From: an uncultured bacterium
GTDB taxonomy: Bacteria > Patescibacteriota > Minisyncoccia > Phycocordibacterales > DATDWN01
Length of the DNA stretch: 62,737 nt
NCBI GenBank assembly: GCA_963727715.1
Contig: CAVSGX010000008.1
Span: forward strand, 1-62,737
Reading direction: 5' to 3'
Each line of letters opens with the position of its first letter. Positions within the stretch are counted from its first letter, which is position 1. The notes below the pieces were generated by a model. That model saw only the letters and a list, made by a program, of their open reading frames with translations, was not told the origin of the DNA and ran no database searches. The translations under genes and the position numbers were made by a program. Shown piece after piece: positions 12,667 through 62,737 of the stretch.

Positions 12667-13623
12667 TTACCCCTCAAGTAGGACAGAACTAATGTTTGAA
12701 TAATAACTCATTGGCGCGCGGAAGCCAATCACTTCTCTCGGTCGGTTGTTTAGGAAGGAATGTATTTCTTGCAATTCTTCCTCAGTGACTGACTCAATAT
12801 CTCTTCGTTTAGGCACAAAACATCTGATCCATCTGTTGGTGTTTTCCACCAGACCTTTTTCCCAAGAATGGTATGGATGTGTAAAATAGATTGGCACTTG
12901 CAGGAGAGTTTCCAACTCTTTCCAACAGGTGAATGCAATATCGTTGTCTGTGGTGATGCTCTTCAATTCAACACCATGGAACAGACGGGAAAGCGCGGCA
13001 CGAATAGTGTCGCGTTTTCTGTTGGGCAGTTTCCTGACCCATGTTCTTTTGGCTTGCCAATCCACAGCAACCAAAAGTACCCACGAACTGTCTTTGGAAA
13101 CGATGAAATCGAGCTCAATGTGTCCTAGACCTTTTCTCTCCGGTCTGACATCAATATACTTCCTGCCATCCTGAATGTGCTTCCAATGATTTCGTTTTCT
13201 CCCACCCTTGTGATTGTTCCAACCCCAAAAAAGCAGGTGGTTTAGACCTCTCGACTCGGCAAATTTGTATATGGCTTTGGCCGAGCAGATGATACCCATT
13301 TCACATTCAAGATACCCGCTAATCTGCTTCGGCGACCAATGATACGGCTTGGTTAATCGTTCCACCACGAATCGACAGAGAAACGGGTCAAGCGCCACTT
13401 TCAGACACTGCTGTTTGGCTCGCCATCTTTTCATTGAAACTTTCTGCTTGGCTTTTTCCGCTTCATACACCCCATTAACACTGTGTTTTTGTATTTCTCT
13501 GCTCACAGTGTTGACACTCCGACCGAGAAATTCGGCAATTTTGCGAATGGCCGAACCGGCGCAATACATCTTTTCAATACAAAACCTCTCTTCAAAAGAC
13601 AAATGATGATATTTGTTTTTCAT
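12667..13623 (-). CDS. IS30 family transposase
   Basis: 318 aa; N-terminal HTH (LSFEERFCIEKMY..GSAIRKIAEFLGRSVNTVSREI) and a DDE region ending HPYHSWEKGLVENTNRWIR. Confidence 0.9.
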   Translation of the reverse strand: MKNKYHHLSFEERFCIEKMYCAGSAIRKIAEFLGRSVNTVSREIQKHSVNGVYEAEKAKQKVSMKRWRAKQQCLKVALDPFLCRFVVERLTKPYHWSPKQISGYLECEMGIICSAKAIYKFAESRGLNHLLFWGWNNHKGGRKRNHWKHIQDGRKYIDVRPERKGLGHIELDFIVSKDSSWVLLVAVDWQAKRTWVRKLPNRKRDTIRAALSRLFHGVELKSITTDNDIAFTCWKELETLLQVPIYFTHPYHSWEKGLVENTNRWIRCFVPKRRDIESVTEEELQEIHSFLNNRPREVIGFRAPMSYYSNISSVLLEG

Positions 13624-13684: not shown

Positions 13685-13696
13685 GCTAGGGGACTC

Positions 13697-14696
13697 CGTT
13701 TCCGCACCCCTCAATTTAGACACTTCATTGAATCTAATAATACCTCTTTTGCTGTCCTAAATCCAAGACATTGACGAGGAATTTCGTTTAAAAACTTTTC
13801 AATTGAACGAAGCTCTTCTTCTGTGACTTCTCTCAAATCTTTTCTCTTTGGAACAAACACCCTGATCCATTTGTTTGTATTTTCAACCAAACCCTTTTCC
13901 CAGGAGTGATATGGGTGACAGAAATATATCGAACATTTTAGTTGTTTTTCCAGTTTCCTCCAACAATTAAATGCGATATCATTGTCTAGTGTAATTGTCT
14001 TGACTGGCATATTACGCAGAGAATCCAAGAAAGCACGCAATACCGTTGCGTGCTTTCTGTTTGGAATTTTGCGAGTGATGGTATCTCTGGAATATCGGTC
14101 AACCAAGACAAATAATGAACAAGCGTTGTGAGATGAGACAATGAAATCTCCCTCCCAGTGTCCAGATCTCTCCATTTTCGGTCTGTCTTCAATGTATTTT
14201 CTCTCATCGATGGCTTTACCGTATCTTTTCTTTTTCCAACCACTTTTCTTGTGGTGTTTTCTCCAAAACAGATATCTTTCCAAACATCTGGAATACACGA
14301 ATTTGTACACCGCTTTAGTTGAGATGTTTTTTCCTTGCAGTTTGAAATACCCTGATATTCTCTCCGGCGACCATCCTTCTTTCAATTTCTCCGGAATGAA
14401 TTTGGACAGTTCTCTGTCCAAAGCAGCTTTCATACACTGCTTCTTGCTTAAATATCTCCTCCAGTATGTTTTGTGGTGAGCTTTCTTGGCTACATACAAA
14501 CCTTTCACTTTCTTTTTCATTTCGTAGGCAATGCATGAATGGTGCCGGCCAAGTTTCTTTCCAATTTTCCTTGCACTCCAACCCTCGGAGAACAAAGCTG
14601 AAATCAAAACTCTTTCCTCGTATGACAAATGTTTAAATGTTTTCATATCACTCAATTATTTCTAACTGAGTGTCTAAATTCAAAGGTTAACTAACA
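13697..14696 (-). mobile_element. IS30-family insertion sequence, lineage B, copy 1 (1000 bp)
   Basis: Ends defined by comparing three copies; imperfect IRs sharing AATTTAGACACT; 3-bp direct repeat CTC (13694..13696 and 14697..14699). Confidence 0.9.
13711..14655 (-). CDS. IS30 family transposase
   Basis: 314 aa; protein identical to the ORF at 28228..29172; HPYHSWEKGLVENTNKWIR motif. Confidence 0.9.
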   Translation of the reverse strand: MSDMKTFKHLSYEERVLISALFSEGWSARKIGKKLGRHHSCIAYEMKKKVKGLYVAKKAHHKTYWRRYLSKKQCMKAALDRELSKFIPEKLKEGWSPERISGYFKLQGKNISTKAVYKFVYSRCLERYLFWRKHHKKSGWKKKRYGKAIDERKYIEDRPKMERSGHWEGDFIVSSHNACSLFVLVDRYSRDTITRKIPNRKHATVLRAFLDSLRNMPVKTITLDNDIAFNCWRKLEKQLKCSIYFCHPYHSWEKGLVENTNKWIRVFVPKRKDLREVTEEELRSIEKFLNEIPRQCLGFRTAKEVLLDSMKCLN

Positions 14697-14701
14697 CTCT
14701 T

Positions 14702-14977: not shown

Positions 14978-16429
14978 TTATTTCGGTCTCATCAATGGGA
15001 ATAATTGCAACTCGCGCAAAGGTTTGTCGGCAAGAAAAGCGAAGAGACGCTCGCCGAAGCCAAAACCGCAGGTTGGGGGCATACCATGTTCCAGCATTTC
15101 CACGAATTCCCAGTCCGCCATCATAGCTTCTTTGTCGCCGGAATCCAAAAGTTTTTGTTGCACTTCAAATCTTTTTCTCTGATCCACCGGATCGTTGAGC
15201 TCCGAGTATCCCCTGCCCATCTCACTGCCGGCGATAATCGGTTGGAACATCTGCACAGTTTTGCCGTCAGGGTTACTCTTGGCCAGTGGCGCAATAAGAA
15301 TTGGATGATTTATCAGAAATGCCGGACCGGAAATATTTTTGCGACAATACTTCCAAAGCGAGTCAGTCAGACGCTCAATATTTGTGCCATCGTATTTTAC
15401 TCCAAGTTCATCAAGTTTATTTCTCATTTCGTCAGCCGAGGCGGTAGCCACATCCACGCCAACCTGCCTTTTTATTTCCTCACAATAATCAATCAAATCC
15501 CAATCATCTTCCAGATCAAAGGTGTGTCCGCGAGTGGTGAATTTTGATTTGCCAAAAACTTCCCTAGCGATTGTCCGATACATTTTTTTGACCAGTTCCA
15601 TTCCATCATTGTAATCAGCGTAAGCCCAGTAGAATTCCATGTTGGTGAATTCCTGCAAATGTTCAAGTGACGAACCTTCATTGCGATAAACTCGGCCGAT
15701 TTCAAAAGTTTTCGGAAAGCCAGCCGCCATCAAACGTTTCTGCCAGAGCTCGCCGACCGAGATGCGCAAATAAACATCCAAATCATAGTCATTGTGGTGT
15801 GTTTTAAACGGTTCGGCTTCGGCACCGCCTGTTGTCGTCTCCAGAGTAGGTGTTTCCACCTCCAAAAAACCTTCATCTTTCATAAACTGGCGAGTGATAT
15901 CCCAGAATTTGCTTTTTTTCAAAACAAGTTCTCTTAACTCAGAGTCTGTCAGCAAATCCAAATATCGCCTGCGATATCTTTCATCCACATCTTGCAATCC
16001 AGCCCATTTTTCGGGCAGAGGAGCAAGCGATTTGCTGACCATCGTCCAGTTTTTCATCAGGATGCTTTGCTCTCCTGTTTTGGATGTCAGCGCTGTGCCG
16101 GTTACTGAAATAAAATCACCGATGTCCACCGTGTCCACGAAAAGAGAAAAAGTTTCTTCCGAAAGTTCGTCTTTTTTTATGATTGCCTGCATCTTCTCGG
16201 TGCCGTCAAAAAGCACAGCGAAAAGTATGGCCCCTTGTCCGCGGATAGCCATAACTCGGCCAGCCACGGAAAACTCCTTGCCTTCGTATTCAAAATCTTT
16301 GAAATTTTCACGCGCTTCGGAAATAGAAAAATCCCGCGCGATTTTGGCCGGGTATGGGTCAATACCTTTTGATTTTAAAATCTCGATTTTGTTTAGCCGA
16401 GCTTTTTTAATTTCGTCTAACGATGCCAT
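14978..16429 (-). CDS. lysS: lysine--tRNA ligase (class II)
   Basis: 483 aa; OB-fold N-domain, class II motifs (FLEVETPTL, YRNEGSSLEHLQEFTNMEFY, GFGFGERL). Confidence 0.95.
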   Translation of the reverse strand: MASLDEIKKARLNKIEILKSKGIDPYPAKIARDFSISEARENFKDFEYEGKEFSVAGRVMAIRGQGAILFAVLFDGTEKMQAIIKKDELSEETFSLFVDTVDIGDFISVTGTALTSKTGEQSILMKNWTMVSKSLAPLPEKWAGLQDVDERYRRRYLDLLTDSELRELVLKKSKFWDITRQFMKDEGFLEVETPTLETTTGGAEAEPFKTHHNDYDLDVYLRISVGELWQKRLMAAGFPKTFEIGRVYRNEGSSLEHLQEFTNMEFYWAYADYNDGMELVKKMYRTIAREVFGKSKFTTRGHTFDLEDDWDLIDYCEEIKRQVGVDVATASADEMRNKLDELGVKYDGTNIERLTDSLWKYCRKNISGPAFLINHPILIAPLAKSNPDGKTVQMFQPIIAGSEMGRGYSELNDPVDQRKRFEVQQKLLDSGDKEAMMADWEFVEMLEHGMPPTCGFGFGERLFAFLADKPLRELQLFPLMRPK

Positions 16430-20508: not shown

Positions 20509-21744
20509 TTAATTTACTGTAGACTTTATATTACCATCTGAAATGAGAATATCAAGCTCGTCGCCGGCTGTGACATTTTTTTTACTGCGAATGATTTTGC
20601 CGGCTCGCCTGACGATGCTGTATCCGCGAGCCAGCTGTCTTTCCGGACTGGCCAGTTTCAAAGTTTTTTCCATTTGCTTTATTTTGTCATCCAAGTGAGC
20701 CGACAGATTTTCAAACCCGCGCAAAATATTTTTTGAAGATTGTAAAATAATTTCCGATAAATGACTGATTTTTGATTCTATCTGAATGAGAGAACTGGTC
20801 AGCGTGGCTTCGGCTCGGCGAAATGTTTCAAATAATCCGGAAAAGCGTTTTTCGATTATGTCTCTGGATTTTTCCAGTACAAAATAATCCACTCTCAAAC
20901 CGGTTTCAAAACCGGACAAAATTTTTTCTTCGGATAAATCAATGATCGCTCCGGCCGAAAGAAAACTCTGGTTTAGGAGATGAGCCACCGCCGTCGGCGT
21001 AGAAACATTTTGATCAGAAACCAGAGCGCAGAGAGGCACATCTTTGTCGTGACCTATGCCGGTCAGTGTCGGCGCGTTGAATTTTGCCAGGGCACGAACG
21101 ACTTCCTCATTATTAAAAGCCTGAAAAGATTCCAGCGACCCGCCACCGCGCATCAAAACCAAAACATCCAGTTTTTCACGATAAAGTGTCCTCAAAGCGG
21201 AAAGTAAATCTCGCACAGCGTCCTGTCCTTCCACTTTTGAATCAACAAACAAAATCTGATAGCCAAATTCTCCGATGTTAGAAAGAAAATCATTTAAAAC
21301 CGCGCCGTTTTTGGATGTGATGACGCCGATTTTGCGCGGAAAATCCGGCAGAGTTTTTTTATGTGCTTCGTCAAAAAGTCCTTCAGTGAACAATTTGGCT
21401 TTCAATTTTTCGTAAGCGATTTGAAGCGCCCCTTCGCCAACAAGTTCAATCGTCTCAACTTGCAATGTCATACCACCGTTCGGTTTGTAAATGTTCGGAT
21501 AAGCCGTGACAATGATTTCTAAACCATCGGCAAGCGTTACACCGGAAATACGGTAATCGTTTTTCCACATAAAACATTTCACAGTTGAACCGTCTTTTTT
21601 GTCCTTCAAAGAAAAATACAAATAGCTCCGGCCCGGATATTCCTGCGCACCGGAAACCTCGCCAAGCACTTTGGCTTTTTCCTCCTTGAGCGCGCCATTG
21701 AGCCTGTCCAGATATTCGCTGACAGAAAAAATTTCATCTTTCAT
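20509..21744 (-). CDS. xseA: exodeoxyribonuclease VII large subunit
   Basis: 411 aa; N-terminal OB fold, catalytic region (GVITSKNGAVLNDF, RGGGSLE), C-terminal coiled coil. Confidence 0.9.
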   Translation of the reverse strand: MKDEIFSVSEYLDRLNGALKEEKAKVLGEVSGAQEYPGRSYLYFSLKDKKDGSTVKCFMWKNDYRISGVTLADGLEIIVTAYPNIYKPNGGMTLQVETIELVGEGALQIAYEKLKAKLFTEGLFDEAHKKTLPDFPRKIGVITSKNGAVLNDFLSNIGEFGYQILFVDSKVEGQDAVRDLLSALRTLYREKLDVLVLMRGGGSLESFQAFNNEEVVRALAKFNAPTLTGIGHDKDVPLCALVSDQNVSTPTAVAHLLNQSFLSAGAIIDLSEEKILSGFETGLRVDYFVLEKSRDIIEKRFSGLFETFRRAEATLTSSLIQIESKISHLSEIILQSSKNILRGFENLSAHLDDKIKQMEKTLKLASPERQLARGYSIVRRAGKIIRSKKNVTAGDELDILISDGNIKSTVN

Positions 21745-22100: not shown

Positions 22101-22315
22101 AAGATTCGGTAATTATGATTTCAGAGACTGCGGAGGCAATTAAAAAAACAACGACGAAGGCGGAGTTGGCGCGAAGCAGTGTTTGACGAGCGGTACTCCG
22201 CGAGGAGTTTGCGAAAGCGCCACGAGTCGAGGAAGATTGTTTTCTTGATTGCCGAGCGAGAGCAAAAGTCCAGCAGGACTTTATGCGTGCTCTGAAATCA
22301 TAATTACTGAATCTT
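22101..22315 (+). repeat. structured intergenic element, copy A (long subtype)
   Basis: 26-bp arms 22101..22126 and 22290..22315 (one G-T pair) enclose a core that is near-identical to 60149..60299 and homologous to 40665..40879 (reverse strand). Confidence 0.9.
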
Positions 22316-26841: not shown

Positions 26842-26904
26842 GGCTATATGCTACTCTCAACCAAAAATCTGTCAAGTTTTGAAAAAATATGGTATATTTT
26901 TTAT

Positions 26905-27348
26905 ATGTCACTCATAACAAACCGCAAAGCCGGATTCAATTACGAAATTTTGGAAAAATACACCGCCGGTGTGGAACTTTTCGGTTTTGAAGTTAAATCT
27001 TTGCAAAAAGGACAGGGTTCTTTGGGCGGAGCACATGTCACAGTCCGCGGTGGTGAGGCTTTCATCATCGGAATGTCAGTTTCCCCTTATCAAACAAACA
27101 ACACGCCGAAAGATTACGACCCGATGCGCAACCGTCGGCTTTTGCTCAACAAAAAAGAAATTTATGAGTTGCAAAAAAGCGAGCAAACCAAAGGCTTGAC
27201 AATTGTCCCTCTTTCGGTGTACAATAAAGGAAGGAAAATCAAGTTGGATATCGCTCTGGTTCGTGGCAAGAAAAAATACGACAAACGTCAAACTCTGAAA
27301 AAGAAGGATGCTATGCGCGATGTCCAGAGGAATTTAAAAGTTCGTTGA
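26905..27348 (+). CDS. smpB: SsrA-binding protein SmpB
   Basis: 147 aa from the ATG at 26905 (the ORF is open from 26848); NRKAGFNYEILEKYTAGVELFGFEVKSL signature. Confidence 0.9.
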   Translation: MSLITNRKAGFNYEILEKYTAGVELFGFEVKSLQKGQGSLGGAHVTVRGGEAFIIGMSVSPYQTNNTPKDYDPMRNRRLLLNKKEIYELQKSEQTKGLTIVPLSVYNKGRKIKLDIALVRGKKKYDKRQTLKKKDAMRDVQRNLKVR

Positions 27349-27563: not shown

Positions 27564-27948
27564 GGGGGTGACAGGTTTTGACATAAAATTTGTATTGCCT
27601 CGGGCAAAGCAGAGCTCCGATAACTCTTTAAACTTTCGGAAAAAATAAGTGTAAAAAACTTATCTAGAGCTATCGTTTCTCCGTTCTACGGAATGAACGA
27701 CTTCGCTTTTTCTTACGCTTCGGCTTAAGAAAGGATTGCCTTCCCAACATCCGATAAGGATGGTTAATCCTCATAAAATTCGGATCCGGATGCTAGCCTG
27801 TCTCGTCTAGCATCTTCAAAATAGAGACTCGCTTTTGTGATGTTTTGTTTGCTTTATAGTCACGAAATCTAAAACCCAGAAACAAACTAAGCTTTGTAGA
27901 TTCGTTTCAATCGATTTTATGGATCCGGCTTCGACGCCGGCACTTCCA
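27564..27948 (+). ncRNA. ssrA: tmRNA (transfer-messenger RNA)
   Basis: 5' GGGGGTGACAGGTTTTGAC; 3' T arm CCGGC-TTCGAC-GCCGG then CACTTCC-A; acceptor GGGGGTG/CACTTCC with G3-U70; candidate tag frame ends ...NDFAFSYASA with TAA at 27726..27728; directly downstream of smpB. Confidence 0.8.
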
Positions 27949-28213
27949 CATCGTTGAACTGTTAGCGTACAAATTGGTCAAATATTGTTGTTTATCAACA
28001 CCTTTGTGCGTTTCTAACCTTTCAGAAATAGACTGTGCTTCGAAAGCCGCTTCTTGAATCGCAAGGAGCGGTTTTTCGGCTACAACATTGAACTTTTGGT
28101 CAATTAGCTGGTGTTTATAACCAAGAGAGGAAAGTATGCCACGCTTCTTGCTTGCAGATGTATTCTTATCCGAAAGACACGAGAACATATTATGTTTAAG
28201 GACAGAAAGACTT

Positions 28214-29213
28214 CGTTTCCGCACCCCTCAATTTAGACACTTCATTGAATCTAATAATACCTCTTTTGCTGTCCTAAATCCAAGACATTGACGAGGAATT
28301 TCGTTTAAAAACTTTTCAATTGAACGAAGCTCTTCTTCTGTGACTTCTCTCAAATCTTTTCTCTTTGGAACAAACACCCTGATCCATTTGTTTGTATTTT
28401 CAACCAAACCCTTTTCCCAGGAGTGATATGGGTGACAGAAATATATCGAACATTTTAGTTGTTTTTCCAGTTTCCTCCAACAATTAAATGCGATATCATT
28501 GTCTAGTGTAATTGTCTTGACTGGCATATTACGCAGAGAATCCAAGAAAGCACGCAATACCGTTGCGTGCTTTCTGTTTGGAATTTTGCGAGTGATGGTA
28601 TCTCTGGAATATCGGTCAACCAAGACAAATAATGAACAAGCGTTGTGAGATGAGACAATGAAATCTCCCTCCCAGTGTCCAGATCTCTCCATTTTCGGTC
28701 TGTCTTCAATGTATTTTCTCTCATCGATGGCTTTACCGTATCTTTTCTTTTTCCAACCACTTTTCTTGTGGTGTTTTCTCCAAAACAGATATCTTTCCAA
28801 ACATCTGGAATACACGAATTTGTACACCGCTTTAGTTGAGATGTTTTTTCCTTGCAGTTTGAAATACCCTGATATTCTCTCCGGCGACCATCCTTCTTTC
28901 AATTTCTCCGGAATGAATTTGGACAGTTCTCTGTCCAAAGCAGCTTTCATACACTGCTTCTTGCTTAAATATCTCCTCCAGTATGTTTTGTGGTGAGCTT
29001 TCTTGGCTACATACAAACCTTTCACTTTCTTTTTCATTTCGTAGGCAATGCATGAATGGTGCCGGCCAAGTTTCTTTCCAATTTTCCTTGCACTCCAACC
29101 CTCGGAGAACAAAGCTGAAATCAAAACTCTTTCCTCGTATGACAAATGTTTAAATGTTTTCATATCACTCAATTATTTCTAACTGAGTGTCTAAATTCAA
29201 AGGTTAACTAACA
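28214..29213 (-). mobile_element. IS30-family insertion sequence, lineage B, copy 2 (1000 bp)
   Basis: Same ends as copies 1 and 3; flanking triplets differ (CTT versus TGA), so there is no target-site duplication. Confidence 0.9.
28228..29172 (-). CDS. IS30 family transposase
   Basis: 314 aa, protein identical to 13711..14655. Confidence 0.9.
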   Translation of the reverse strand: MSDMKTFKHLSYEERVLISALFSEGWSARKIGKKLGRHHSCIAYEMKKKVKGLYVAKKAHHKTYWRRYLSKKQCMKAALDRELSKFIPEKLKEGWSPERISGYFKLQGKNISTKAVYKFVYSRCLERYLFWRKHHKKSGWKKKRYGKAIDERKYIEDRPKMERSGHWEGDFIVSSHNACSLFVLVDRYSRDTITRKIPNRKHATVLRAFLDSLRNMPVKTITLDNDIAFNCWRKLEKQLKCSIYFCHPYHSWEKGLVENTNKWIRVFVPKRKDLREVTEEELRSIEKFLNEIPRQCLGFRTAKEVLLDSMKCLN

Positions 29214-42317: not shown

Positions 42318-43318
42318 TGTTAGTTAACCTTTGAATTTAGACACTCAGTTAGAAATAATTGAGTGATATGAAAACATTTAAACATTTGTCATACGAGGAA
42401 AGAGTTTTGATTTCAGCTTTGTTCTCCGAGGGTTGGAGTGCAAGGAAAATTGGAAAGAAACTTGGCCGGCACCGTTCATGCATTGCCTACGAAATGAAAA
42501 AGAAAGTGAAAGGTTTGTATGTAGCCAAGAAAGCTCACCACAAAACATACTGGAGGAGATATTTAAGCAAGAAGCAGTGTATGAAAGCTGCTTTGGACAG
42601 AGAACTGTCCAAATTCATTCCGGAGAAATTGAAAGAAGGATGGTCGCCGGAGAGAATATCAGGGTATTTCAAACTGCAAGGAAAAAACATCTCAACTAAA
42701 GCGGTGTACAAATTCGTGTATTCCAGATGTTTGGAAAGATATCTGTTTTGGAGAAAACACCACAAAGAAAAGTGGTTGGAAAAAGAAAAGATACGGTAAA
42801 GCCATCGATGAGAGAAAATACATTGAAGACAGACCGAAAATGGAGAGATCTGGACACTGGGAGGGAGATTTCATTGTCTCATCTCACAACGCTTGTTCAT
42901 TATTTGTCTTGGTTGACCGATATTCCAGAGATACCATCACTCGCAAAATTCCAAACAGAAAGCACGCAACGGTATTGCGTGCTTTCTTGGATTCTCTGCG
43001 TAATATGCCAGTCAAGACAATTACACTAGACAATGATATCGCATTTAATTGTTGGAGGAAACTGGAAAAACAACTAAAATGTTCGATATATTTCTGTCAC
43101 CCATATCACTCCTGGGAAAAGGGTTTGGTTGAAAATACAAACAAATGGATCAGGGTGTTTGTTCCAAAGAGAAAAGATTTGAGAGAAGTCACAGAAGAAG
43201 AGCTTCGTTCAATTGAAAAGTTTTTAAACGAAATTCCTCGTCAATGTCTTGGATTTAGGACAGCAAAAGAGGTATTATTAGATTCAATGAAGTGTCTAAA
43301 TTGAGGGGTGCGGAAACG
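42318..43318 (+). mobile_element. IS30-family insertion sequence, lineage B, copy 3 (1001 bp)
   Basis: Same ends as copies 1 and 2; 3-bp direct repeat GTT (42315..42317 and 43319..43321); one extra A compared with the other copies. Confidence 0.9.
42359..43304 (+). pseudogene. IS30 family transposase, frameshifted copy
   Basis: CACAAAGAAAAG here versus CACAAGAAAAG in copies 1 and 2 (extra A at 42774..42776) splits the ORF into 42359..42799 and 42840..43304; also one His-to-Arg change. Confidence 0.85.
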
Positions 43319-43371
43319 GTTACCTCTCCGTTAGAGAGTTTATTACATCTTTGCTTTTTTGTCAAGTACAA

Positions 43372-47839: not shown

Positions 47840-48863
47840 ATTCCCAAATGTATTAGGACACTCTTGTAAAATAGAGTGATATGAAATTTAAAAATATTTC
47901 GTCGGTTGAGCGGCTGGAAATTTCCATATTAAAATCAAAAGGATATTCCATTCGTGCCATAGCCGAAAAGATGGAGAGAAGCCCGAACACCATCTCGTAC
48001 GAGCTTCGAAAAAACAAAACTGGTGGCAGATACGACCCGAAAAAAGCCGAGGCCAAGTCTCATCTGCGAAAGAGAATGAGAAAACTGCAATGGATGAAAA
48101 TCGAGCAAAACTCGGAACTGAAAAAATACATTGTCGCCGGTCTGCAAAACAAATGGAATCCGGACGAAATCTCAGGAAGGATGAAGCTGGAGAAAAAGCC
48201 GTGGTTTGTTTCCAAAAATTCGATATACCGGTGGCTATATTCAAACAGGGGTCAAAAATACTGTCCGCTTCTGTATTCCAAGCGATACCACCGAAGAAAA
48301 AGAACTGGGTCGAAAAAGAGAACACTCATTCCAAACCGTGTTGATATATCGAAACGATTTCGCGGAGCGGACAACAGAACAAGATATGGACATTGGGAAA
48401 AAGATGCTGTTGTTTCAAGAAAAGGTGTGTCAGCTTCACTGGCTGTGGCGACAGAAAGAAAAAGTCGATTGCTTGAGGCCAGAAAAGTCAAAAATATGTC
48501 ACCGACGGATCATGAAATTGCCACCAGAAAAATGTTGCAAAACAAAAAAGCTCTGAGTATCACCAGAGACAATGGTATTGAAAACATCTATCACGGAGAA
48601 ACACCGACACCATCATTTTTCTGCGAAGCATACTCATCCTGGCAGAAAGGCGGGGTTGAAAATGGCAACAAACTGATCCGAATCTTCTTTCCCAAAGGAA
48701 TTGATTTCAGATTTGTTACCCAGGAAGAAGTTGACCGAGCAGTCGAGACCATCAACAACAAACCAAGAAAAATTCTGAAATACAAAACAGCTCTCGAGGT
48801 CGCGAGAAGCTGTGGTATTATTAACAATATTAAAAGTGAGAGTGTCCTAATTCAGGGTGGAAT
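47840..48863 (+). mobile_element. IS30-family insertion sequence, lineage C (boundaries approximate)
   Basis: Inverted repeats ATTAGGACACTCT at 47852..47864 and 48839..48851, with weaker matches extending outward (ATTCC...). Confidence 0.75.
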
Positions 48864-48867
48864 TTAG
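47881..48867 (+). CDS. IS30 family transposase
   Basis: 328 aa; HTH (LKSKGYSIRAIAEKMERSPNTISYEL) and DDE region with YSSWQKGGVENGNKLIR. Confidence 0.9.
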   Translation: MKFKNISSVERLEISILKSKGYSIRAIAEKMERSPNTISYELRKNKTGGRYDPKKAEAKSHLRKRMRKLQWMKIEQNSELKKYIVAGLQNKWNPDEISGRMKLEKKPWFVSKNSIYRWLYSNRGQKYCPLLYSKRYHRRKRTGSKKRTLIPNRVDISKRFRGADNRTRYGHWEKDAVVSRKGVSASLAVATERKSRLLEARKVKNMSPTDHEIATRKMLQNKKALSITRDNGIENIYHGETPTPSFFCEAYSSWQKGGVENGNKLIRIFFPKGIDFRFVTQEEVDRAVETINNKPRKILKYKTALEVARSCGIINNIKSESVLIQGGI

Positions 48868-48984: not shown

Positions 48985-50509
48985 CTATGCAAAGCCGGGG
49001 AAAAAGTCAGTTTTGATGTTTTTTGAATGAACGCCCATTGATTGCAGAATTTTTTCAAAACTGACAACCATCCCTCGCGGACCGGAGAGGTAAAAAATTC
49101 GTTCTTTGTAATCCGGAATTTTTTCAGCGATAATTTTGGCGTCAATGGCCCGTGTAGAATTCGGAAGTCTGGACAAATCGGCTATCAGGAGAAGTCAGAG
49201 CGTAAAAAGTTTTCAAACCGAGTTTCTGCTCTGCCTCGCTGAAAAGTTCACGGTATGATATGTCTTCTGTTTTTCTGTTACTGTAAAGAAGAGTGACCGA
49301 GCGTTTTTCATTTTTGTCCAGAAGATATTTAATCATACTGCGAAAAGGTGTGATGCCGATGCCACCGGCGATGAATACCAGTTTTTTATTTTTATCTTTC
49401 GGTAAAACAAAATCGCCGGAAAGGCCAGAGGCCACAATGGTGTCCCCTTTTTTCATAGACAAAAGTTTTTTCTTGAATGTGCTACCTTTTTCGTAGAATC
49501 TTATACCGAGACGCAACTCGCGTTCCGTCGGCGACGAAGCCAGAGTGAAATATCGGCGCATGCCACGACTGTCCGGCTTGTGTTCAAGTGTCCATTCCAT
49601 ATATTGTCCGGGTTTGTAAACCATTTGCTGGTCTGGGGTGAAAACAAAATCATAAGAATCGTTTGCGGTCTTTTCGATGCCGACAAGAGAGAGTACAAGT
49701 TTTTTCTTTGGACTGACAATGTAAGAAAAAATATTTCCGACTACCAAAGCCAGCTCCGGCGTTGAATATATCGAGCCGATGTGTATAGCTGGAGAAAACA
49801 AAATCCCAACCAATATTCCGAAAGCAACTTGCCACCGCAGAGACCCCGGCGAAGTTAACGGCTCGGTCAGCATAACCGAAGCAAAAAACAAAATCGGCGT
49901 GTACAAAATTACCTGGTCAAAAGAAGAGAAAATATTTCCGCCGTTTATCATAGTCGTTCCCAAAATAACGACAAGCGAAGTTAAAATAAAAGCCCAGATC
50001 AGATCCGTTCTGCGAATTTTGCGAACTATCAAAAATCCGCCAAAAGCCACGAATGGTAACATTATCGGCGTGCCGACCCACCAGCTGGCCGACTGATTCA
50101 AAACCAAAGCGGTGATGACCATGCCAATACCAGCAGGATTGAAAATATGTTTTTTGCCGATGGCCAAAATATATTTTGAAGCCATGGCCAAAGCCGGCGC
50201 CCAAAAAGCCAAAATCAGAAAATTACTGTCGTGAAAAGAAATGGCTGGCGTGATGATTAAAGCCAAAATAAAAGCGGTGATGTATGTTGATTCCGGATTG
50301 CTCGGCGCGTCATAGCCCCAAGCGAATATTTTGTTGACGATAAAACAAACGAACAAAATATAAACAGTTGAAAAAAATAACAAGACGGGATCATATGATA
50401 AAATTTTCAGAAAACCAAGAACCTCGGCGAAGGCAAGCAAACCGACTAGCTCGTAGAGAACAACCCGATACATTGTTATTTTATTTAAAATGTCATCAAT
50501 TTTTTTCAT
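48985..50509 (-). CDS. RnfD/NqrB-like membrane domain fused to a ferredoxin-NAD(P) reductase-like FAD/NAD module, interrupted by a 1-nt frameshift in this assembly
   Basis: HIFNPAG and MLTEPLTSP membrane motifs; RRYFTLASSP FAD site, FIAGGIGITPF NAD site; ORFs 49142..50509 and 48985..49176 join (..EFYTG/IDAKII..) if one C of the run at 49147..49151 is removed. Confidence 0.7.
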
Positions 50510-51270
50510 ATTTTTGTGAATTTTTCAAAACCCGAAGTCTCCGTGCCGATGCCGGACGAATCAACGCAGTATCCTTCAAAACCGTCCAGTCGTTCAATGA
50601 AGTTGATCCCCTCTTTGCCCATGGCGAAAGTAGCAGTGGCAAATCTGTCGGCTTCGTAAACATTCGGACCGACAACTGTAAGACTGACGATTTCGTTTAG
50701 CGGGGCGCGACCGGCAAACGGGTTGTAAATATGCTGACCACGGATGTATGTGCCGGACGTGGCCATACCACAATCGTGAAGAAAAATTTTTTTGATAATT
50801 CTATTCTTATCATCGTCAAAAGGATCGCGGATCCCGGCACTCCAAACTTCGCTGTTTTCATTTTTCCCACGAGCTTCAATGTCCCCACCGGCGTCAACAT
50901 AAAAATTTCTGTAACTGAGATCGGAGAGAATATTGACCGCGCCGAAAATTGACCAACCTTTGACCAGACCAGACGGATCGTAGAGACCTTCCGGAGTTAA
51001 AATGTTGAAGTAACCATCGGTTTCCAATTTTGTTTTCTCGGACAAGGCAAAAACTTCTTTCATATCGTCGCTGTAATTTTCTTCTTTAATTTCTTTTCGG
51101 TTGATTCTACTTATTTCACTGTCGCTTTTGTACGTGCTGAATTTTTTATCAACATAAGTGAAATAATCAAACACTTTTTTCAAAGCGCTTGTTTTGTCTT
51201 CGTCCAGCATGGCTTCATCAACCAAACAAACAGTTATCGGCATTCCCATTATGAGTCTTGTTTCTTTCAT
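50506..51270 (-). CDS. apbE: FAD:protein FMN transferase (ApbE family)
   Basis: 254 aa; MGMPITV, DPSGLVKGW, ATSGTYIRG motifs. Confidence 0.85.
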   Translation of the reverse strand: MKETRLIMGMPITVCLVDEAMLDEDKTSALKKVFDYFTYVDKKFSTYKSDSEISRINRKEIKEENYSDDMKEVFALSEKTKLETDGYFNILTPEGLYDPSGLVKGWSIFGAVNILSDLSYRNFYVDAGGDIEARGKNENSEVWSAGIRDPFDDDKNRIIKKIFLHDCGMATSGTYIRGQHIYNPFAGRAPLNEIVSLTVVGPNVYEADRFATATFAMGKEGINFIERLDGFEGYCVDSSGIGTETSGFEKFTKI

Positions 51271-51277
51271 TTTTGTC

Positions 51278-51781
51278 TTAAGAATTTTTAGCTTGACTCA
51301 AAGCATTGCCAAGAGACTCTTGAAAAGCTTTACTGGTTTCTGTCGCTCCGGAAACAATATCAACGTTGGCGCTCTGGACGGCGATAGCTTCGCTTTTCAA
51401 AACAGGAATAGCCATTTGGCTTTTGCGAAGTGAAGCGCTTCTGTCACTCGGGTATTGCAAAAATTTTACGTCAGAAATCTTGCCATTTTGGATGACGGCT
51501 TCCACTTGAACATTGCCAAAGTAAGCGTCGGCCACACTGCCGGTGAATGTGCCGTCAGCATATAAGCCACTTTTGGCAGAAGGCGCTGGGATGATTGATG
51601 TGGTTGGTTTTGTTTGCGTCGGCTCACTTCCAGAAGCCACTGGGTTGTCTTTTTTAGTAGAAGCCACCGGTTGCGGTGATGTGGTTGTGTAAATCGGCGC
51701 CTGTGACGCGCTAAAAAATTGGTACAAAGAATAGGCAACAAAAATAGCCACAAAGGTTACTGTAATAACGATTTTTTTCAT
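51278..51781 (-). CDS. secreted FMN-binding domain protein (flavinylation substrate)
   Basis: 167 aa; TM anchor; C-terminal FMN_bind-like domain with the SGATETS flavinylation motif. Confidence 0.8.
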   Translation of the reverse strand: MKKIVITVTFVAIFVAYSLYQFFSASQAPIYTTTSPQPVASTKKDNPVASGSEPTQTKPTTSIIPAPSAKSGLYADGTFTGSVADAYFGNVQVEAVIQNGKISDVKFLQYPSDRSASLRKSQMAIPVLKSEAIAVQSANVDIVSGATETSKAFQESLGNALSQAKNS

Positions 51782-51844: not shown

Positions 51845-51994
51845 TCAAAGTTTTGTTTGATCAAATTGTTTGACGCATTTGTCCATATTCTCAAACTTGT
51901 GACCGATCAAAAACCCGACGAAAAAAACCACTACAAAAAGAATAATGGCTACGATTTGCGAAAACTTTGTTACTTCATTCCATTTAATGTTCAT
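51845..51994 (-). CDS. possible 49-aa membrane peptide (below the ORF-track length cutoff)
   Basis: Hand translation MNIKWNEVTKFSQIVAIILFVVVFFVGFLIGHKFENMDKCVKQFDQTKL; a single TM helix; no clear SD. Confidence 0.3.
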   Translation of the reverse strand: MNIKWNEVTKFSQIVAIILFVVVFFVGFLIGHKFENMDKCVKQFDQTKL

Positions 51995-52954: not shown

Positions 52955-53320
52955 CTAAAATTCACTCCACTCGGCCGGGAAAAGCTTGACCCACAAACAC
53001 CCTTTTGGAAGTGGCATTTCGCCTTTATACTTCTCGTAAAACCAAAGACGAATTTTGCGAAGAATTTCTTTTCTTCGTTGCCCTAGGTTTTTCCTGCGCT
53101 CTGGGTACTCATTTGCCTCAACTTCAATACGGAGATCATACTTTGTCCGCATGCCTTTGGGCATCGGTTCAACATCAATTTCGACATCTCCTGCGGAAAG
53201 CTTCCCGTCAGGATGTGAACAAGTCAAAGCTTCAGCTACAAAATCTGCAAGAACACAGGCGAGAGAAGTTACGGTAGATCCTGTTACCGGATCTCGATAA
53301 AATAATCTGACAAACGGCAT
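52955..53320 (-). CDS. hypothetical protein starting Met-Pro (possibly tautomerase-superfamily/DUF1904-like)
   Basis: 121 aa from the ATG at 53320, preceded by GGAGGT; N-terminal MPFVRLFY; family assignment is only a resemblance. Confidence 0.4.
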   Translation of the reverse strand: MPFVRLFYRDPVTGSTVTSLACVLADFVAEALTCSHPDGKLSAGDVEIDVEPMPKGMRTKYDLRIEVEANEYPERRKNLGQRRKEILRKIRLWFYEKYKGEMPLPKGCLWVKLFPAEWSEF

Positions 53321-53407
53321 GATTACCTCCGGCAAGAAGACTAGCAAAAATTTAGTTAAAAAGAAAGCCGGACGCAGTGAGCCCGGACTTTTTAAAACAA
53401 ATTTTCT

Positions 53408-54093
53408 CTAACTATAATAAGCGTTCATTTGTTTTTGGTAATCATAGTCATCAGAGATACATCGTTCGCAGCCAGATGCGCCCGTATAGCAAAGACAGTG
53501 TCCTCTGGGACATGTTCCTTTACAAGCAGAACAACTTTTGCATTTATTGCACCAATGACAGTATGAACAGTGTCTACGTCCAGGCCCACATTCTATTATG
53601 TAACAAACACAGTGACCACAGGTCTGTTTGTTTCCAGGACAAAGTTGACATCTGCCACAAGAATGGGCTTCACATTTCGGATGGCCACAGTCGAGCGTGT
53701 GACTTTTGCAAGTTTTACATTCGTGGCAACGTGGACATTTATCACAAATTGTACAATGCCCACATCCATTTTTTAGACACCAACAGTGCTTGCATTTTTG
53801 AGTTGAACATTGAAGACATCTGCCACAACTGTGTTTTTTGCATAAGCAGTGACCACACTGTTGATAACTCGATGCGCAATCACTACATCTACCACAACAA
53901 CTGCTTCTGCGACAAACTCCACAATGTCCATTTACACATCTTCCTTTATCTAGACAACTGCACAAATTGCAATCATCAGCTGTGATTTCGTCAACTATAA
54001 ATTTTATTGGTTTAAATACAATAAAATACACTACACAGCCAACTAAAAATATACAGAAACCAGCGAGGTAAACGAAAAAAGTAGAATTGGCAT
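53408..54093 (-). CDS. membrane-anchored cysteine-rich repeat protein (46 Cys in the 207-aa ORF)
   Basis: ORF 53408..54031 contains six CG[HR]C and more than 20 CxxC motifs; an ATG at 54093 with an AGGA SD joins in frame, adding a TM helix, if the T6 run (plus-strand A-run 54075..54080) were T7. Confidence 0.6.
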
Positions 54094-54129
54094 TCTATCC
54101 TGCTTTCTAACCCAATAGTACAATATTAT

Positions 54130-54690
54130 TTATTAAAAATCAAAAATCTACCTGGTCGAAATCCATCTGCGATTACTGACCCAAGCATCCCTTTCCAAAT
54201 TTTCAATCGTCCTCGCGCCCAAATCATCCAAAATCCCCGGCTCCGTAAAAGCTCCCCGCACCACCCGCATTTGATAATCTGATTGATATCCGTGCAAATG
54301 ACGAGATTACCGAAGAAGAGTTCAAAGACCGTAAGCAATCGTTGCTTGCCGACAAAGAGAAATTTCAAGTGCTCATCAAAGATACGGACAAGCGAGTTGA
54401 CACTTGGCTTGAAGTTGCCGAGCGTGGTTTCAACTTTGCAGAAAAAGCATCAGAGATTTTTGCTGATGCGATAAGTGAAGACAATATCAAAGACGAGAGA
54501 GGAAAGAGATATTTGCCTCGTTTAGTTCGGCATCGTACTAAAGACAAAAAACTGTTTGTTTCTTGGGATAATTTGCTATTCCCTATGCAAGAGCTATCAA
54601 AAGAGGTGGGCAAAATTAAAACAGGGTTAGAACCTGCAAAAAGCGTTGGAAACAAAAGAGATTTCAATGATTTATACTCACAAAATCCAC
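54130..54690 (+). pseudogene. decayed large serine recombinase (C-terminal part, multiple frame breaks)
   Basis: Open frame from about 54270 reads FDNLIDIRANDEITEEEFKDRKQSLLADKEKFQVLIKDTDKRVDTWLEVAER, like the coiled-coil C-terminus of large serine recombinases; upstream fragments (STWSKSI...) lie in other frames; no N-terminal catalytic domain. Confidence 0.5.
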
Positions 54691-54695
54691 GAGTG

Positions 54696-54766
54696 CTGCG
54701 GGATAGGGACTCGGACCCCAATACCCAGGACCAAAACCTGGTGTCCTACCATTAGACGATCCCGCA
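54696..54766 (-). tRNA. tRNA-Gln (anticodon UUG)
   Basis: 71-nt cloverleaf read by hand: acceptor TGCGGGA/TCCCGCA (U1-A72), anticodon arm CCAGG-TTTTGGT-CCTGG, T arm TGGGG-TCCGAGT-CCCTA, discriminator G; CCA not encoded. Confidence 0.85.
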
Positions 54767-54793: not shown

Positions 54794-55851
54794 TTACACT
54801 TTTTTTGGATTTTCGCCATTGGCGGTTTTGTTTCGTTTACCGATTATGTTTATCAACGCCAGTTCCAGGGGCAGAGAGGAGATGTTGGCGCTAGTGGTTT
54901 CCCCAAGGGCGGTCAGAAGCTCAATGAGAATTTGGGATGAGAAAATTTGGTCGGTTTTGGCGAAGTCGGAAAGAAATTTAAATTCTTTTTCGGAGAGCTC
55001 GTCTTTCACGATGTGGCCGGCGCCAAAGCGCAAAAGCAAACGGCCAAGCCCAGACGCAAAATGAGTTTCAGAAAAACAGACATATCTATATTTTCTTTTT
55101 GAGCTAGGCGAACCGCCGACAAAGCTTTATCTAAATCGCTTTTGGAAATGGCTGAGATGACATCCTCCACCAGTTCCCCTTTCGGCGCGTCGGTCACTAG
55201 GCGGATTTCTTCGTCGGAAATTTTTTTGTCGGCTGACGATGAGATGACTTTTTGCAAAACGCCCAACGCGTCGCGGAAAGAACCTTCGCTCAAAACGGCC
55301 AGAAGTTCGGCCGACTCTCCGCTCACGGAAAAACCTTCCTTTTTTGCCACGGATTGCACGACTTTGCCCAAAATTTCAATGCTCGGTTTTTTGAATGTGT
55401 AAACTTCGCAACGCGACATAACCGTCTCGGGGATTTTGTGAATCTCGGTGGTGGCCAAAATAAAAATGACATACGGTGGTGGTTCTTCCAGAGTTTTGAG
55501 CAGAGCGTTGCCGGCCGACTTGGAGAGCATATGGGCTTCGTCCAAAATGTAGATCTTGTATTTTGATTCAAAAGGAAGGGTTTGGATGGAATCGTTGAGC
55601 GAGCGGATGTCGTCCACGCCGGTGTTTGAAGCGGCGTCGATTTCGTAAATGTCATTTCCCGTGGTGCCCAGAGCCGTGGCCAAAATGCGGGCCACCGATG
55701 TCTTGCCAGTGCCTCGCGTGCCGGCAAAAAGATAGGCGTGAGAAATTTTGCTGGAGGAGATTTGGGCCTGCAAGACTTTGACGATGTGGTCCTGACCCAG
55801 CACTTCGCTAAAATTTTGCGGGCGATATTTTCTGTATAAAACTTCGGACAT
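54794..55851 (-). CDS. dnaX: DNA polymerase III subunit gamma/tau, reading frame broken near 55035..55052
   Basis: YRPQNFSEVLGQ, GTRGTGKTS, ILDEAHML, SRC motif; ORF 55006..55851 stops about 20 codons after the break, while the conserved continuation (LLLRFGAGH...) lies in the -1 frame (ORF 54794..55039). Confidence 0.85.
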
Positions 55852-60122: not shown

Positions 60123-60325
60123 AAAGCCTAGCGGTTGCATTTTCCGAGACTGCGGAGGCAATTAGAAAACAACAACGAAGACGGAGTTGGCGCGAAGCAG
60201 TGTTTGAGCGTAGCGAGTTTGCGAAAGCGCCACGAGTCGAGGACGATTGTTTTCTTGATTGCCGAGCGAGAGCAAAATCGCACCAGCGATTTATGCGTGC
60301 TCGAAAAATGCAACTGCTAGGCTTT
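60123..60325 (+). repeat. structured intergenic element, copy E (long subtype)
   Basis: 26-bp arms 60123..60148 and 60300..60325 (two non-Watson-Crick positions) enclose a core near-identical to copy A. Confidence 0.9.
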
Positions 60326-60356: not shown

Positions 60357-61858
60357 ATGCCAGACATCAAAGAAATCACTTCCCTTCTTTCAAATCCCAG
60401 CCAGGATGATTTGACCTTGATTCAAAAGGCTTACGCTTTCGCCGTGCGCGCTCACGAGAGACAAAAAAGAATGTACGGCGAACCGTATTTCATTCACCCT
60501 TTCGCCACGGGGAAAAACTTGGCCGAGCTCGGTATGTCCGCCACGACCATTTCAGCCGGCCTTTTGCATGACACGTTGGAAGACACTTCCGTCACAGCCG
60601 AAGAACTGGAAAAAAATTTTGGAAAGGAGATTCTTTTCTTGGTGGAAGGTGTGACCAAACTCGGCCAAATAAAATATCGTGGAATGACCCGCCACACCGA
60701 GAGTTTGCGAAAACTTTTTGTGGCTATGTCGCAAGATATTCGCGTACTCATCATCAAACTTTGCGACCGCCTGCACAATATGCAAACTTTGCAATTCGTG
60801 CCGAAGGAAAAACAGTTACGCATCGCCACTGAGACTCTGGAAATTTACGCACCACTGGCTTATCGCCTCGGCATCAGAAAAGTCCAACGATCTTTGGAAG
60901 ACATTGCATTTTCATATGTCTATCCGAAAGAATTTGAAGAAACAAACAAACTGTTGAAAATAAAATTAGACGAAAGCGAGGAATCTTTGCAAAAATTTCA
61001 AAAATCGCTAAAAAAAGAGTTGGCCAAAAATAATATTCTTCACTTTCAAACGGATTATCGGGTCAAGGGTTTGTATTCGCTGTATAAAAAACTGAAGCGC
61101 AATGATATGGATATTGAAAAAATCTACGACATATCGGCAGTGCGAGTCATAGTGCCGACAGTTGAGGAATGTTACAAAGTTCTCGGCATAATCCACAGCA
61201 ACTGGAAACCTCTGACCGGCCGGATCAAGGATTATATTTCCACTCCGAAACCGAATGGTTACCAATCGCTTCATACCACTATTTTTTCCGGCGACGGAAA
61301 TATTATTGAAGTCCAAATACGCACCGAAGAAATGCATCGCGAAGCGGAATACGGCATTACTTCGCATATTCTGTACAAACATTCTCAAGAAGAAACCAAA
61401 AAAAGAGACGACTCTTCCGGTTTTTCATGGATTAAAAATATTATATTGACCGACGATGAAAAAAACTAAAGATACCGATTTTAAAGATGTCCCGAAATGG
61501 ATTAAAGAGCTCGTGGAATATCAGAAAAAAAATAATGACAAAGAATTTCTGAAGGATATGAAAACGGATTTTTTGGAGGAGCGGATTTTTGTTTTCACCC
61601 CAAAGGGCGATGTTATTGATCTGCCGATAGGTTCGTCGGCTGTTGACTTTGCTTACAGCATTCACTCGGACATCGGCGCCATATGTCCGGAGTGCAGTAA
61701 ACGGCAAATTTATGGCCCTCGACACCGAATTGCAATCCGGCGACTTCGTGGAAATCGAAACCAAAAAAACGGCTAAAGCTAGCCGTAAATGGCTGGAATT
61801 TTGCAAAACGACACTGGCCAAAAGGCACATCCGCAACTTTTTGGAGAAGAAAAAATAA
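60357..61858 (+). CDS. RelA/SpoT-family (p)ppGpp synthetase/hydrolase with a TGS domain, two frame breaks in this assembly
   Basis: HD domain (HDTLEDT), synthetase domain (RVKGLYSLYKK, YQSLHTT, EVQIRT), TGS (FVFTPKGDVIDLP...NGKFMAL); breaks at the A7 run 61459..61465 and at CCGG 61687..61690. Confidence 0.8.
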
Positions 61859-61990: not shown

Positions 61991-62737
61991 TTCAAGTACA
62001 AGTTTTATTTTACAGTAAATACTAAAATTTTTGATGGAGTAAAGATCGTCGTCTGTGTTGTCGGCCTGTTTGATTTCTTCCGGCGCGCGACTTTCATCTT
62101 CAACAATAACTTCGCCGACAGAATTTTCGGCCAGTTTTTCACCCAAGTCTGGTGTTTCAATGACCGGATTTTTCTGGTTGTTTTTTATCAGTCCTAAAAT
62201 ATTTTTCAAATCCTCGTCCGAGAAAAAATCAATGGTAATCTTTCCGCCGTTTTTACGTTTTTTTCAATCATAACCCTCGTGCCGAGCGATTCAGTCAAAG
62301 CTTCTTCCAACTCTTGTGTTTCTGGATCAAGCAACGCGTCTTTTTTGCGAGCTCTTTCGTAGGCGATGCGACGGGCAATGGCTTCAGCTTCGCGCACGGT
62401 CAATTTTTTAAACATTATTTCTTTGAATAAAGTGTTCTGTTCCTCCGGTCGGCTGGACAGAGCCAAAAGTGGACGGAGGTTGACCCTCAAAAATTTTGCC
62501 GGTGGAAATAGCATCCAGAATTTCTGTCGGCAAATCCAAAATGCGCAAGGTGTTGGTTATATAAACACGACTCTTGCCGATCTTTTGAGCGATGTCGGCG
62601 TGCTTGAAACTGAATTCATTGACCAAACGATCAAAAGCCCGAGCTCGGTCAACAGGATTTAAATCTTCGCGCTGAACATTTTCAATCAGAGCCAATTCCA
62701 ACTTCATCAAATCATTGCCTTCCACATCATCGCCGAC
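61898..62737 (-). CDS. parB: chromosome partitioning protein ParB (5' end beyond the window), two frame breaks in this assembly
   Basis: ALIENVQREDLNPVDRARAF, HTH KIGKSRVYITNTLRIL, then RPLLALSSRPEEQ and GGKITIDFFSDEDLKNILGLI in other frames; breaks near 62475..62485 and at the run 62250..62254. Confidence 0.8.

Follow-up and report, generated by a model that had tools for sequence, protein, structure and literature searches.

A rare family of cysteine- and histidine-rich, putatively metal-binding proteins from a Patescibacteriota genome

The window analysed here is a stretch of 62,737 nucleotides (nt) on contig CAVSGX010000008.1 (GCA_963727715.1) from an uncultured Patescibacteriota bacterium, and all coordinates are window positions. 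On its minus strand, a gene with a GTG start (53408..54031, stop codon included) was delimited from the list of open reading frames (ORFs), its translation, its composition and its homologs P0001, P0002 and P0003, and encodes a protein of 207 amino acids (aa) rich in cysteine (Cys) and histidine (His). On the evidence of sequence searches, this protein founds a very rare and undescribed family of Cys/His-rich proteins, with four members including itself. On balance, and with modest confidence, it would be a cytoplasmic, possibly membrane-tethered protein of a new family which binds multiple metal ions, most likely zinc.

Composition and module architecture

The 207-aa product contains 46 Cys (22%), 13 His, 17 Lys, 11 Arg, 9 Tyr, 2 Trp and 3 Phe, with an isoelectric point (pI) of 8.5, and its composition is also rich in Ser and Gly besides Lys. 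The density of potential ligands (Cys plus His) is about one per three residues. CxxC pairs were counted 23 times when overlapping ones are included, and CxC five times, so the 46 Cys and more than 20 CxxC of the initial annotation were reproduced. The six CG[HR]C units that it had listed were all located as well, at residues 46, 59, 69, 90, 125 and 138, in the order CGRC, CGHC, CGRC, CGHC, CGRC, CGHC. The core holds 22 CxxC against 11.5 +/- 2.5 expected, and none of 5000 shuffles of the same residues reached 22. Among the other window ORFs of 100 aa or more, the next-highest Cys content is 7% and the median 1.9%, and a second Cys-rich ORF was found neither in the window nor in 80 related loci.

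In the protein, a short N-terminal segment and a degenerate Cys-rich lead-in precede two modules of about 58 residues, which are followed by a Cys cap and an acidic-aromatic tail. The first module copy lies at 53690..53860 (QCGHCLCKKHSCGRCLQCSTQKCKHCWCLKNGCGHCTICDKCPRCHECKTCKSHTLD) and the second at 53510..53692 (DCGHPKCEAHSCGRCQLCPGNKQTCGHCVCYIIECGPGRRHCSYCHWCNKCKSCSACKGTC), both on the minus strand and both delimited in module alignment A2, followed by the C-terminal Cys cap and tail at 53411..53509 on the same strand (PRGHCLCYTGASGCERCISDDYDYQKQMNAYYS). Over six module copies from the four proteins, alignment A2 has 14 invariant Cys/His columns, with the pattern C-G-H-[CP]-x-[CY]-x4-C-x2-C-x2-C-x(4-6)-C-[GK]-H-C-x-C-x4-C-[GS]-(x0-4)-H-C-(x2-C)5. 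Runs of (Cxx)5C and CGxCxxC motifs are present in all four members, the latter numbering four in the window protein and between one and four in every homolog. The acidic-aromatic tail is found in three of the four members (SDDYDYQ, EDDDWRK, EEDDYYAD), and a tail of the window-protein type is also carried by P0001 (EDDDWRKRQNDD) and P0002 (EEDDYYADQTYDH).

The two module copies of the window protein share 48% amino-acid and 55% nucleotide identity, and nine of the 26 residues identical between them use different codons, including Ser encoded by TCT in one and AGT in the other. Likeness at the protein level together with codon divergence indicates that the module duplication is old and that selection on the protein has kept the Cys/His pattern. 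Tandem Repeats Finder revealed no tandem DNA repeats under the Cys pattern, only short repeats of 13-28 nt, so the pattern is not a recent DNA repeat.

Homologs of the protein

Three homologs were found by an exhaustive phmmer search over 1.84 billion representatives (about 15 billion proteins): P0001 (205 aa, E 8.8e-11, 43% identity to the window protein), P0002 (157 aa, E 1.8e-7) and P0003 (168 aa, E 8.6e-5). Conserved homologs of the kind that the initial annotation proposed to look for thus exist. In a pairwise BLASTP comparison with composition adjustment, P0001 aligned with the window protein nearly end to end, with the Cys/His columns kept. Each homolog forms a singleton cluster and lies on a contig of 1.0-2.8 kb, and the gene of P0001 occurs in identical copies on two contigs (L083 and L084).

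Other searches returned little. The initial annotation had not recognised the family, and indeed Pfam, NCBIfam, PHROGs, PADLOC and the PDB sequences gave no family match for the Cys-rich protein; with all four members as queries, Pfam had no match at E up to 10, and NCBIfam likewise had none. A word-indexed homolog search found nothing with the protein joined to its possible N-terminal extension (the T7 form, described below), only P0002 and P0003 with the family profile, and nothing with the module profile. A scan of genome contigs with the protein was empty, as were viral contigs searched with the family profile and phage genomes searched by tblastn. One match each from the metagenome and viral scans (L001 and L002), both on the same 412 kb contig, was judged a chance match and set aside as spurious: at 10001-10201 of L002 (IMGVR_UViG_3300021387_000463) a 133-aa ORF has only the nine residues YCHWCNKCK in common with the window protein. 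In the literature, this type of protein was not described, and the search turned up only the large extracellular Cys-rich proteins of Peribacteria and unrelated Cys-rich extensions of heliorhodopsins.

Possible membrane anchor and location of the domain

An N-terminal extension of the protein is possible at 54032..54093 on the minus strand, where an ATG at 54093 lies one base off the Cys-rich frame. Between them stands a T6 homopolymer (54075..54080, minus strand), which is suspected of a one-base deletion, similar frame breaks being present elsewhere in the window. In three-frame translation, one extra T in this run joins the ATG to the Cys-rich frame (MPILLFFVYLAGFCIFLVGCVVYFIVFKPIKF...), and the resulting T7 version would encode a 26-residue hydrophobic helix (PILLFFVYLAGFCIFLVGCVVYFIVF) with a hydropathy of 2.77 over 19 residues. 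AlphaFold2 predicted the helix with a predicted local distance difference test score (pLDDT) of 87-90, which is weak evidence. The sequence AGGA stands at 54101-54098, 4 nt ahead of the ATG. These upstream positions, the reading MPILLF and the T7 join are all as the initial annotation gave them.

Its further proposals, that the run should be T7 and that the protein carries a transmembrane (TM) anchor, held in part. The repair is plausible, and reasonable because one-base breaks were found in essential genes of the same window; moreover, P0002 has an N-terminal TM helix with a hydropathy of 2.65. However, neither a TM helix nor a signal peptide is present in P0001 and P0003, and P0001 starts at an ATG behind a GGAGG Shine-Dalgarno site. 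The unrepaired GTG start leaves 20 residues before the first Cys, and this N-terminus is collinear with those of the soluble P0001 (MDLSKIFRELFG...) and P0003 (MPTLIESIFG...), so the anchor may not exist here. The chance that the window protein is anchored is put at about even. If no base is restored, the ATG at 54093 (MPILLF...) opens an upstream ORF of 16 codons whose stop lies 12 nt before the GTG, and reinitiation from it at the GTG is conceivable.

The AGGA does exist at the given position, but as a Shine-Dalgarno site it was given little weight since most genes here look leaderless. Most genes in the window lack a Shine-Dalgarno sequence and carry a TATAAT-like box 6-9 nt ahead of the ATG (for example upstream of 4723, 14978-16429, 20509-21744, 40093 and 55851), which suggests that the mRNAs would be mainly leaderless. 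A putative promoter of the Cys-rich gene was picked by eye at 54098..54143 on the minus strand, with TTGATT at 54143-54138, a 17 nt spacer and TACTAT at 54120-54115; it agrees with the consensus at 8 of 12 positions, below the threshold of the scanner.

By the positive-inside rule, the positively charged flank of a TM helix faces the cytoplasm. In both forms which bear a TM helix the positive charges follow it (KPIK in the joined window protein, KHGRVVTKK in P0002), and the joined window protein has no positive charge on the N-terminal side, which places the C-terminal domain in the cytoplasm. Neither a lipobox nor a signal peptide was found in the window protein. The Cys-rich domain would therefore be cytoplasmic by the positive-inside rule, and the probably extracytoplasmic location suggested by the initial annotation was not borne out.

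The opposite topology would make it a type II membrane-anchored protein with the Cys-rich domain outside the cell, stabilised by disulfides or binding metals at the surface, in the manner of other Cys-rich surface proteins of the candidate phyla radiation (CPR). Such a protein is suggested by the clean hydrophobic helix that opens the T7 ORF, by the N-terminal TM helix of P0002, and by Peribacteria, which encode large extracellular Cys-rich proteins with a presumed role in attachment (PMC4736985). It is nevertheless unlikely, because two of the four members have neither signal peptide nor TM helix and the start of P0001 is well defined, because the positive charges stand behind rather than ahead of the helix, and because n-region and lipobox are both missing. 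The proteins of Peribacteria resemble the window protein in being Cys-enriched, from CPR genomes and variable between strains, but they are of a different kind, averaging 1655 aa with about 7% Cys and signal peptides (PMC4736985), against 207-228 aa, 22% Cys and no signal peptide in the window protein.

Proposed metal binding

In a reducing cytoplasm, the 46 Cys and 13 His, placed in CxxC knuckles, are most simply understood as metal ligands, and metal binding would be the most reasonable reading of the Cys/His-rich domain. The initial annotation had called the domain metal- or disulfide-rich; the metal half of this agrees with a number of CxxC twice the shuffled expectation, while the extracytoplasmic disulfide-rich half is unsupported. 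In the proposed mechanism, the Cys-rich domain would fold in the cytoplasm, where many thiophilic metal ions, most likely Zn(II), would be coordinated by the Cys and His residues. The ions would sit in CxxC knuckle sites strung into chains, or else in thiolate clusters like those of metallothioneins. Buffering or storage of metal would then be one possible role of the protein; another would be that of a scaffold stabilised by zinc, with the conserved acidic-aromatic tail as the contact to a partner. If the T6 run is a one-base assembly deletion, the domain may be attached to the cytoplasmic side of the membrane through the N-terminal helix. A more specific proposal can be advanced tentatively, as somewhat short of even: a new family with a module of about 58 residues (Cys16/His3), seemingly confined to CPR bacteria of the Paceibacteria type, forming an unusually large poly-metal protein (about 200 aa, 46 Cys) which lies in the cytoplasm, is tethered to the membrane and docks a partner through its conserved tail.

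The PDB sequences approached by the family profiles are all small zinc-binding domains (parkin RING2, NZF, zf-CXXC, RING, TAZ). The best match was the IBR/RING2 (Rcat) part of parkin, with E of 0.005-0.008, which is weak and possibly compositional. RING2 of the RBR proteins is defined by C6HC, or CxxC-x(9-11)-CxHxxC-x4-C-x(2-4)-CxxC, and the ligand order CxxC...C-x-H-x2-C-x4-C...CxxC of parkin RING2 aligns with one module. Judged from this alignment, successive sites of the zinc-ribbon kind may bind two or more Zn ions per module. Unlike RING2, the module has about twice the Cys, no RING1/IBR context and no Pfam IBR match, and no ubiquitin system is known in bacteria of this kind.

Metallothioneins are usually shorter than 100 aa, with 15-35% Cys in CxC, CxxC and CC and few aromatic residues. 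The window protein shares with them (MT2A; SmtA/BmtA, MymT) a very high Cys content, CxxC and CxC spacings, richness in Lys, Ser and Gly, the lack of a predicted regular fold and a presumed role in binding many Zn, Cu or Cd ions; with the bacterial ones it also shares interspersed His. Its 22% Cys, 23 CxxC and five CxC are metallothionein traits, but its 207 aa, 9 Tyr, 2 Trp and 3 Phe are not. It differs further in being three to four times longer and in having a module of about 58 residues with invariant His, aromatic residues, the acidic-aromatic tail and perhaps a TM anchor. Membership of a metallothionein family by sequence was rejected, as none of the four members matched Pfam or NCBIfam and hhalign gave about 1%.

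Several other Cys-rich classes were compared. ZF-CXXC is a eukaryotic chromatin domain (KMT2, MBD1, CFP1) with two CGxCxxC and KFGG, the DNA contact. The CGxCxxC signature is common to both, the window protein is basic, and the family profile approached the CXXC domains of KMT2B and MBD1 in PDB weakly (E 0.05-0.12). The spacing and number of Cys are different, though, and membership was rejected: CGxCxxC occurs four times, but KFGG is absent and Pfam zf-CXXC (PF02008) did not match. The Cys-rich domain of DnaJ, with four CxxCxGxG repeats, is alike in its repeated CxxC pairs and binds zinc in a bacterial cytoplasmic protein. CxxCxGxG occurs in none of the window protein, P0001 and P0002, as the initial annotation had noted for the window protein, and P0003 has one chance match; the hhalign probability against a hand-entered DnaJ sequence was 0.4%, and a DnaJ-type finger was rejected. 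A multihaem c-type cytochrome was also rejected, since the two CxxCH in the window protein and the two in P0001 stand at non-equivalent sites, P0002 and P0003 have none, and there is no signal peptide. Giardia proteins of the VSP/HCMP type have a signal peptide, a CxxC-rich ectodomain and a C-terminal TM helix; this type was rejected because Pfam gave no match and the sole hydrophobic helix is N-terminal and optional in the family.

A number of observations weigh against a multi-metal cytoplasmic protein. The hhalign probabilities were 1.1% against MT2A and 0.4% against SmtA, with hand-entered reference sequences, and the PDB profile matches are weak, may be compositional, and count as analogies rather than membership. 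AlphaFold2 gave a mean pLDDT of 38.6 with the four-sequence family alignment and 42.4 with the six-sequence module alignment, and about 30-42 over the Cys-rich part, so the ligand assignment has no supporting fold. Of the structure prediction that the initial annotation had suggested, only the upstream helix scored well, and the Cys-rich part was uninterpretable. The family has four members only, the homologs being singletons on short contigs, and no conserved neighbourhood indicates a function. The codon-usage score of the gene is 0.007 per codon against 0.10 +/- 0.035 in other genes, which is atypical for the genome and adds no independent support for expression in this host.

Iron-sulfur binding is the main alternative as to the ligand, though an improbable one. 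On this account the (Cxx)5C runs and a CxxCxxCxxxCP motif would bind [4Fe-4S] or [2Fe-2S], and the protein would be an electron carrier, cytoplasmic or tethered, perhaps serving nearby redox genes. The motif, which the initial annotation had reported as absent, does occur once and exactly as CKSCSACKGTCP at residues 164-175 of 207; CxxCxxCxxxC stands at the same place in P0001, and every member has (Cxx)5C runs. Flavin-based redox genes (FMN_bind, ApbE and an RnfD-like FAD/NAD reductase, 49142-51781) lie 1.6 kb away. However, no Fer4 or other iron-sulfur model of Pfam matches any member at E up to 10. The redox genes are set apart from the ORF by a terminator and two further genes, one unrelated and one on the opposite strand, and they are absent from L083, the sole homolog context with DNA. 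A Fer4 ferredoxin was rejected: beyond the window protein the CP motif is not kept, the Pro being missing from the P0001 version, and P0002 and P0003 having no such motif.

Coding strand and frame breaks

The minus-strand ORF is a genuine protein-coding gene, as follows from homologs with kept Cys/His columns and from a hairpin after the stop codon. This terminator-like hairpin (53368..53386, minus strand) lies 22 nt past the stop codon and is followed by the T-rich tail CTTTCTTTTT. The mirror ORF on the plus strand (53377..53985, 202 aa), which the initial annotation had considered as possibly the expressed one, was found in the ORF list. When the protein was re-encoded with the codon usage of the genome, the antisense strand stayed open over 190 codons or more in 5.4% of re-encodings and over 100 codons or more in 72%, and the homologous gene of L083 has antisense fragments of 115 aa and 68 aa only and no full-length mirror ORF. 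The mirror ORF is thus an expected by-product, and the hairpin on the minus strand likewise speaks against its expression.

The locus might still be non-functional, being a pseudogene by the T6 frameshift, or having the mirror ORF or neither strand expressed. The ATG at 54093 is out of frame in the sequence as given, a truncated MliC-like fragment lies nearby (51845-51994), and the codon-usage scores of the sense and mirror ORFs (0.007 and -0.002) do not separate the strands. Against this, the Cys-rich frame is open for 226 codons, upstream as far as 54088, and aligns end to end with P0001, such a mirror ORF arises in about 5% of re-encodings and has no counterpart in the gene of L083, the terminator is on the minus strand, and breaks in the essential dnaX and parB indicate assembly error instead of decay. 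A non-functional locus is hence very unlikely. The TGT:TGC ratio is 36:12 in the Cys-rich gene vs 41:45 in other genes, and the atypical codon usage fits an accessory or acquired gene and gives no choice of strand.

Frame breaks are spread over the window. The gene dnaX (54794-55851) is split near 55045, and restoring a T in a T3 run yields a protein of 343 aa as in a related locus (L003). A relA/spoT-like gene (60357-61855) has two breaks, one in an A7 run at 61457-61463 and the other at about 61680-61697 inside the TGS domain, and parB (62018-62737) is broken within its helix-turn-helix (HTH) domain. Five transposase genes of the IS30 family (HTH_38 + rve) are present at 12667-13623, 13692-14700, 28209-29213, 42318-43319 (inverted) and 47881-48867. 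Three of them (13692-14700, 28209-29213 and 42318-43319) are one element with 98-100% identity over about 1 kb, and the third of these has one extra T in a short T run (T2 vs T3), by which its ORF is split. Since the breaks fall in essential genes and are mostly missing homopolymer bases, they are most likely homopolymer-biased assembly errors and not decay. That five IS30-family copies were assembled through is compatible with a long-read assembly.

A precursor of a heavily cross-linked, ribosomally made peptide (sacti/ranthipeptide-like) or a secreted Cys-rich toxin, which the dense Cys and tiny family recall, is scarcely credible, since neither a maturase (radical SAM or other) nor a protease or exporter is adjacent in the window or in L083, the length of 157-207 aa is far above that of typical precursors, and PADLOC and PHROGs gave no match.

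Genomic neighbourhood

The adjacent dnaX is 60-70% identical to dnaX of metagenome-assembled genomes (MAGs) of Parcubacteria, Zambryskibacteria and Paceibacterota, so the window comes from a CPR bacterium. In the relatives, tRNA-Gln follows dnaX at varying distance, and which genes surround the tRNA or lie past it changes from one genome to the next; the stretch with the Cys-rich gene, downstream of dnaX and tRNA-Gln, is variable within this clade. It had been called a decayed island, but breaks are also present in core genes outside it, and no direct repeat of the tRNA-Gln 3' end was found as an island border. No Rfam RNA family was found in the region of the Cys-rich gene.

The neighbours of the P0001 gene on L083 match the same variable region of related MAGs (HTH regulator 83%, DUF2975 48%, a small upstream ORF 58-62%; no family was assigned to the last). 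L083 is a contig of a related Paceibacteria-like organism, and these neighbours suggest that the Cys-rich family is part of the clade's flexible gene pool. The neighbourhoods of homologs, which the initial annotation had pointed to, were compared, and no gene neighbour is common to the window and L083.

Several other features of the window were noted. The minus-strand operon at 49142-51781 encodes an NQR2/RnfD-like membrane domain fused to FAD/NAD-binding domains, an ApbE flavin transferase and an FMN_bind protein. In its make-up the operon is reminiscent of a membrane module for flavin-based electron transfer, an uncommon find in a reduced CPR genome. The MliC-like ORF at 51845-51994 (minus strand, 49 aa; MNIKWNEVTKFSQIVAIILFVVVFFVGFLIGHKFEN...) matches the N-terminal part of a longer protein (127 aa) encoded near tRNA-Gln in L017, with 76% identity over 37 residues, and is truncated or frame-broken. 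The gene at 52955-53347 is an exception to the leaderless pattern, with GGAGG 5 nt ahead of an ATG at 53320. On the plus strand at 54342-54755, a 137-aa ORF has homologs in L040 (37%) and L080 (29%) and no family match; its 3' end overlaps the opposite-strand tRNA-Gln by 60 nt and is probably altered by another frame error. A direct repeat of 93 nt (22205-22297 and 60215-60307) is 89% identical over copies 38 kb apart, with no Rfam match. The smpB gene and tmRNA adjoin each other (26848-27348 and 27564-27951), about 260 nt upstream of an IS30 copy.

Implications

One-base assembly errors are the simplest explanation of the apparent gene decay in the window, and frame-shifted ORFs should be repaired before interpretation. 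A Cys-rich metal binder is already known as a kind, and the family and its module are undescribed. The known metallothionein-like proteins of bacteria are few, short and poorly surveyed, and CPR bacteria have minimal genomes in which most lineage-specific proteins are without a known role. If the proposed function is true, the protein would form a structural class of its own among the metallothionein-like or zinc-array proteins of bacteria, and a 200-residue, 46-Cys protein with a repeated, conserved module would add a new type of scaffold on which metals are densely bound. It could also show how CPR episymbionts buffer or store zinc, copper or cadmium.

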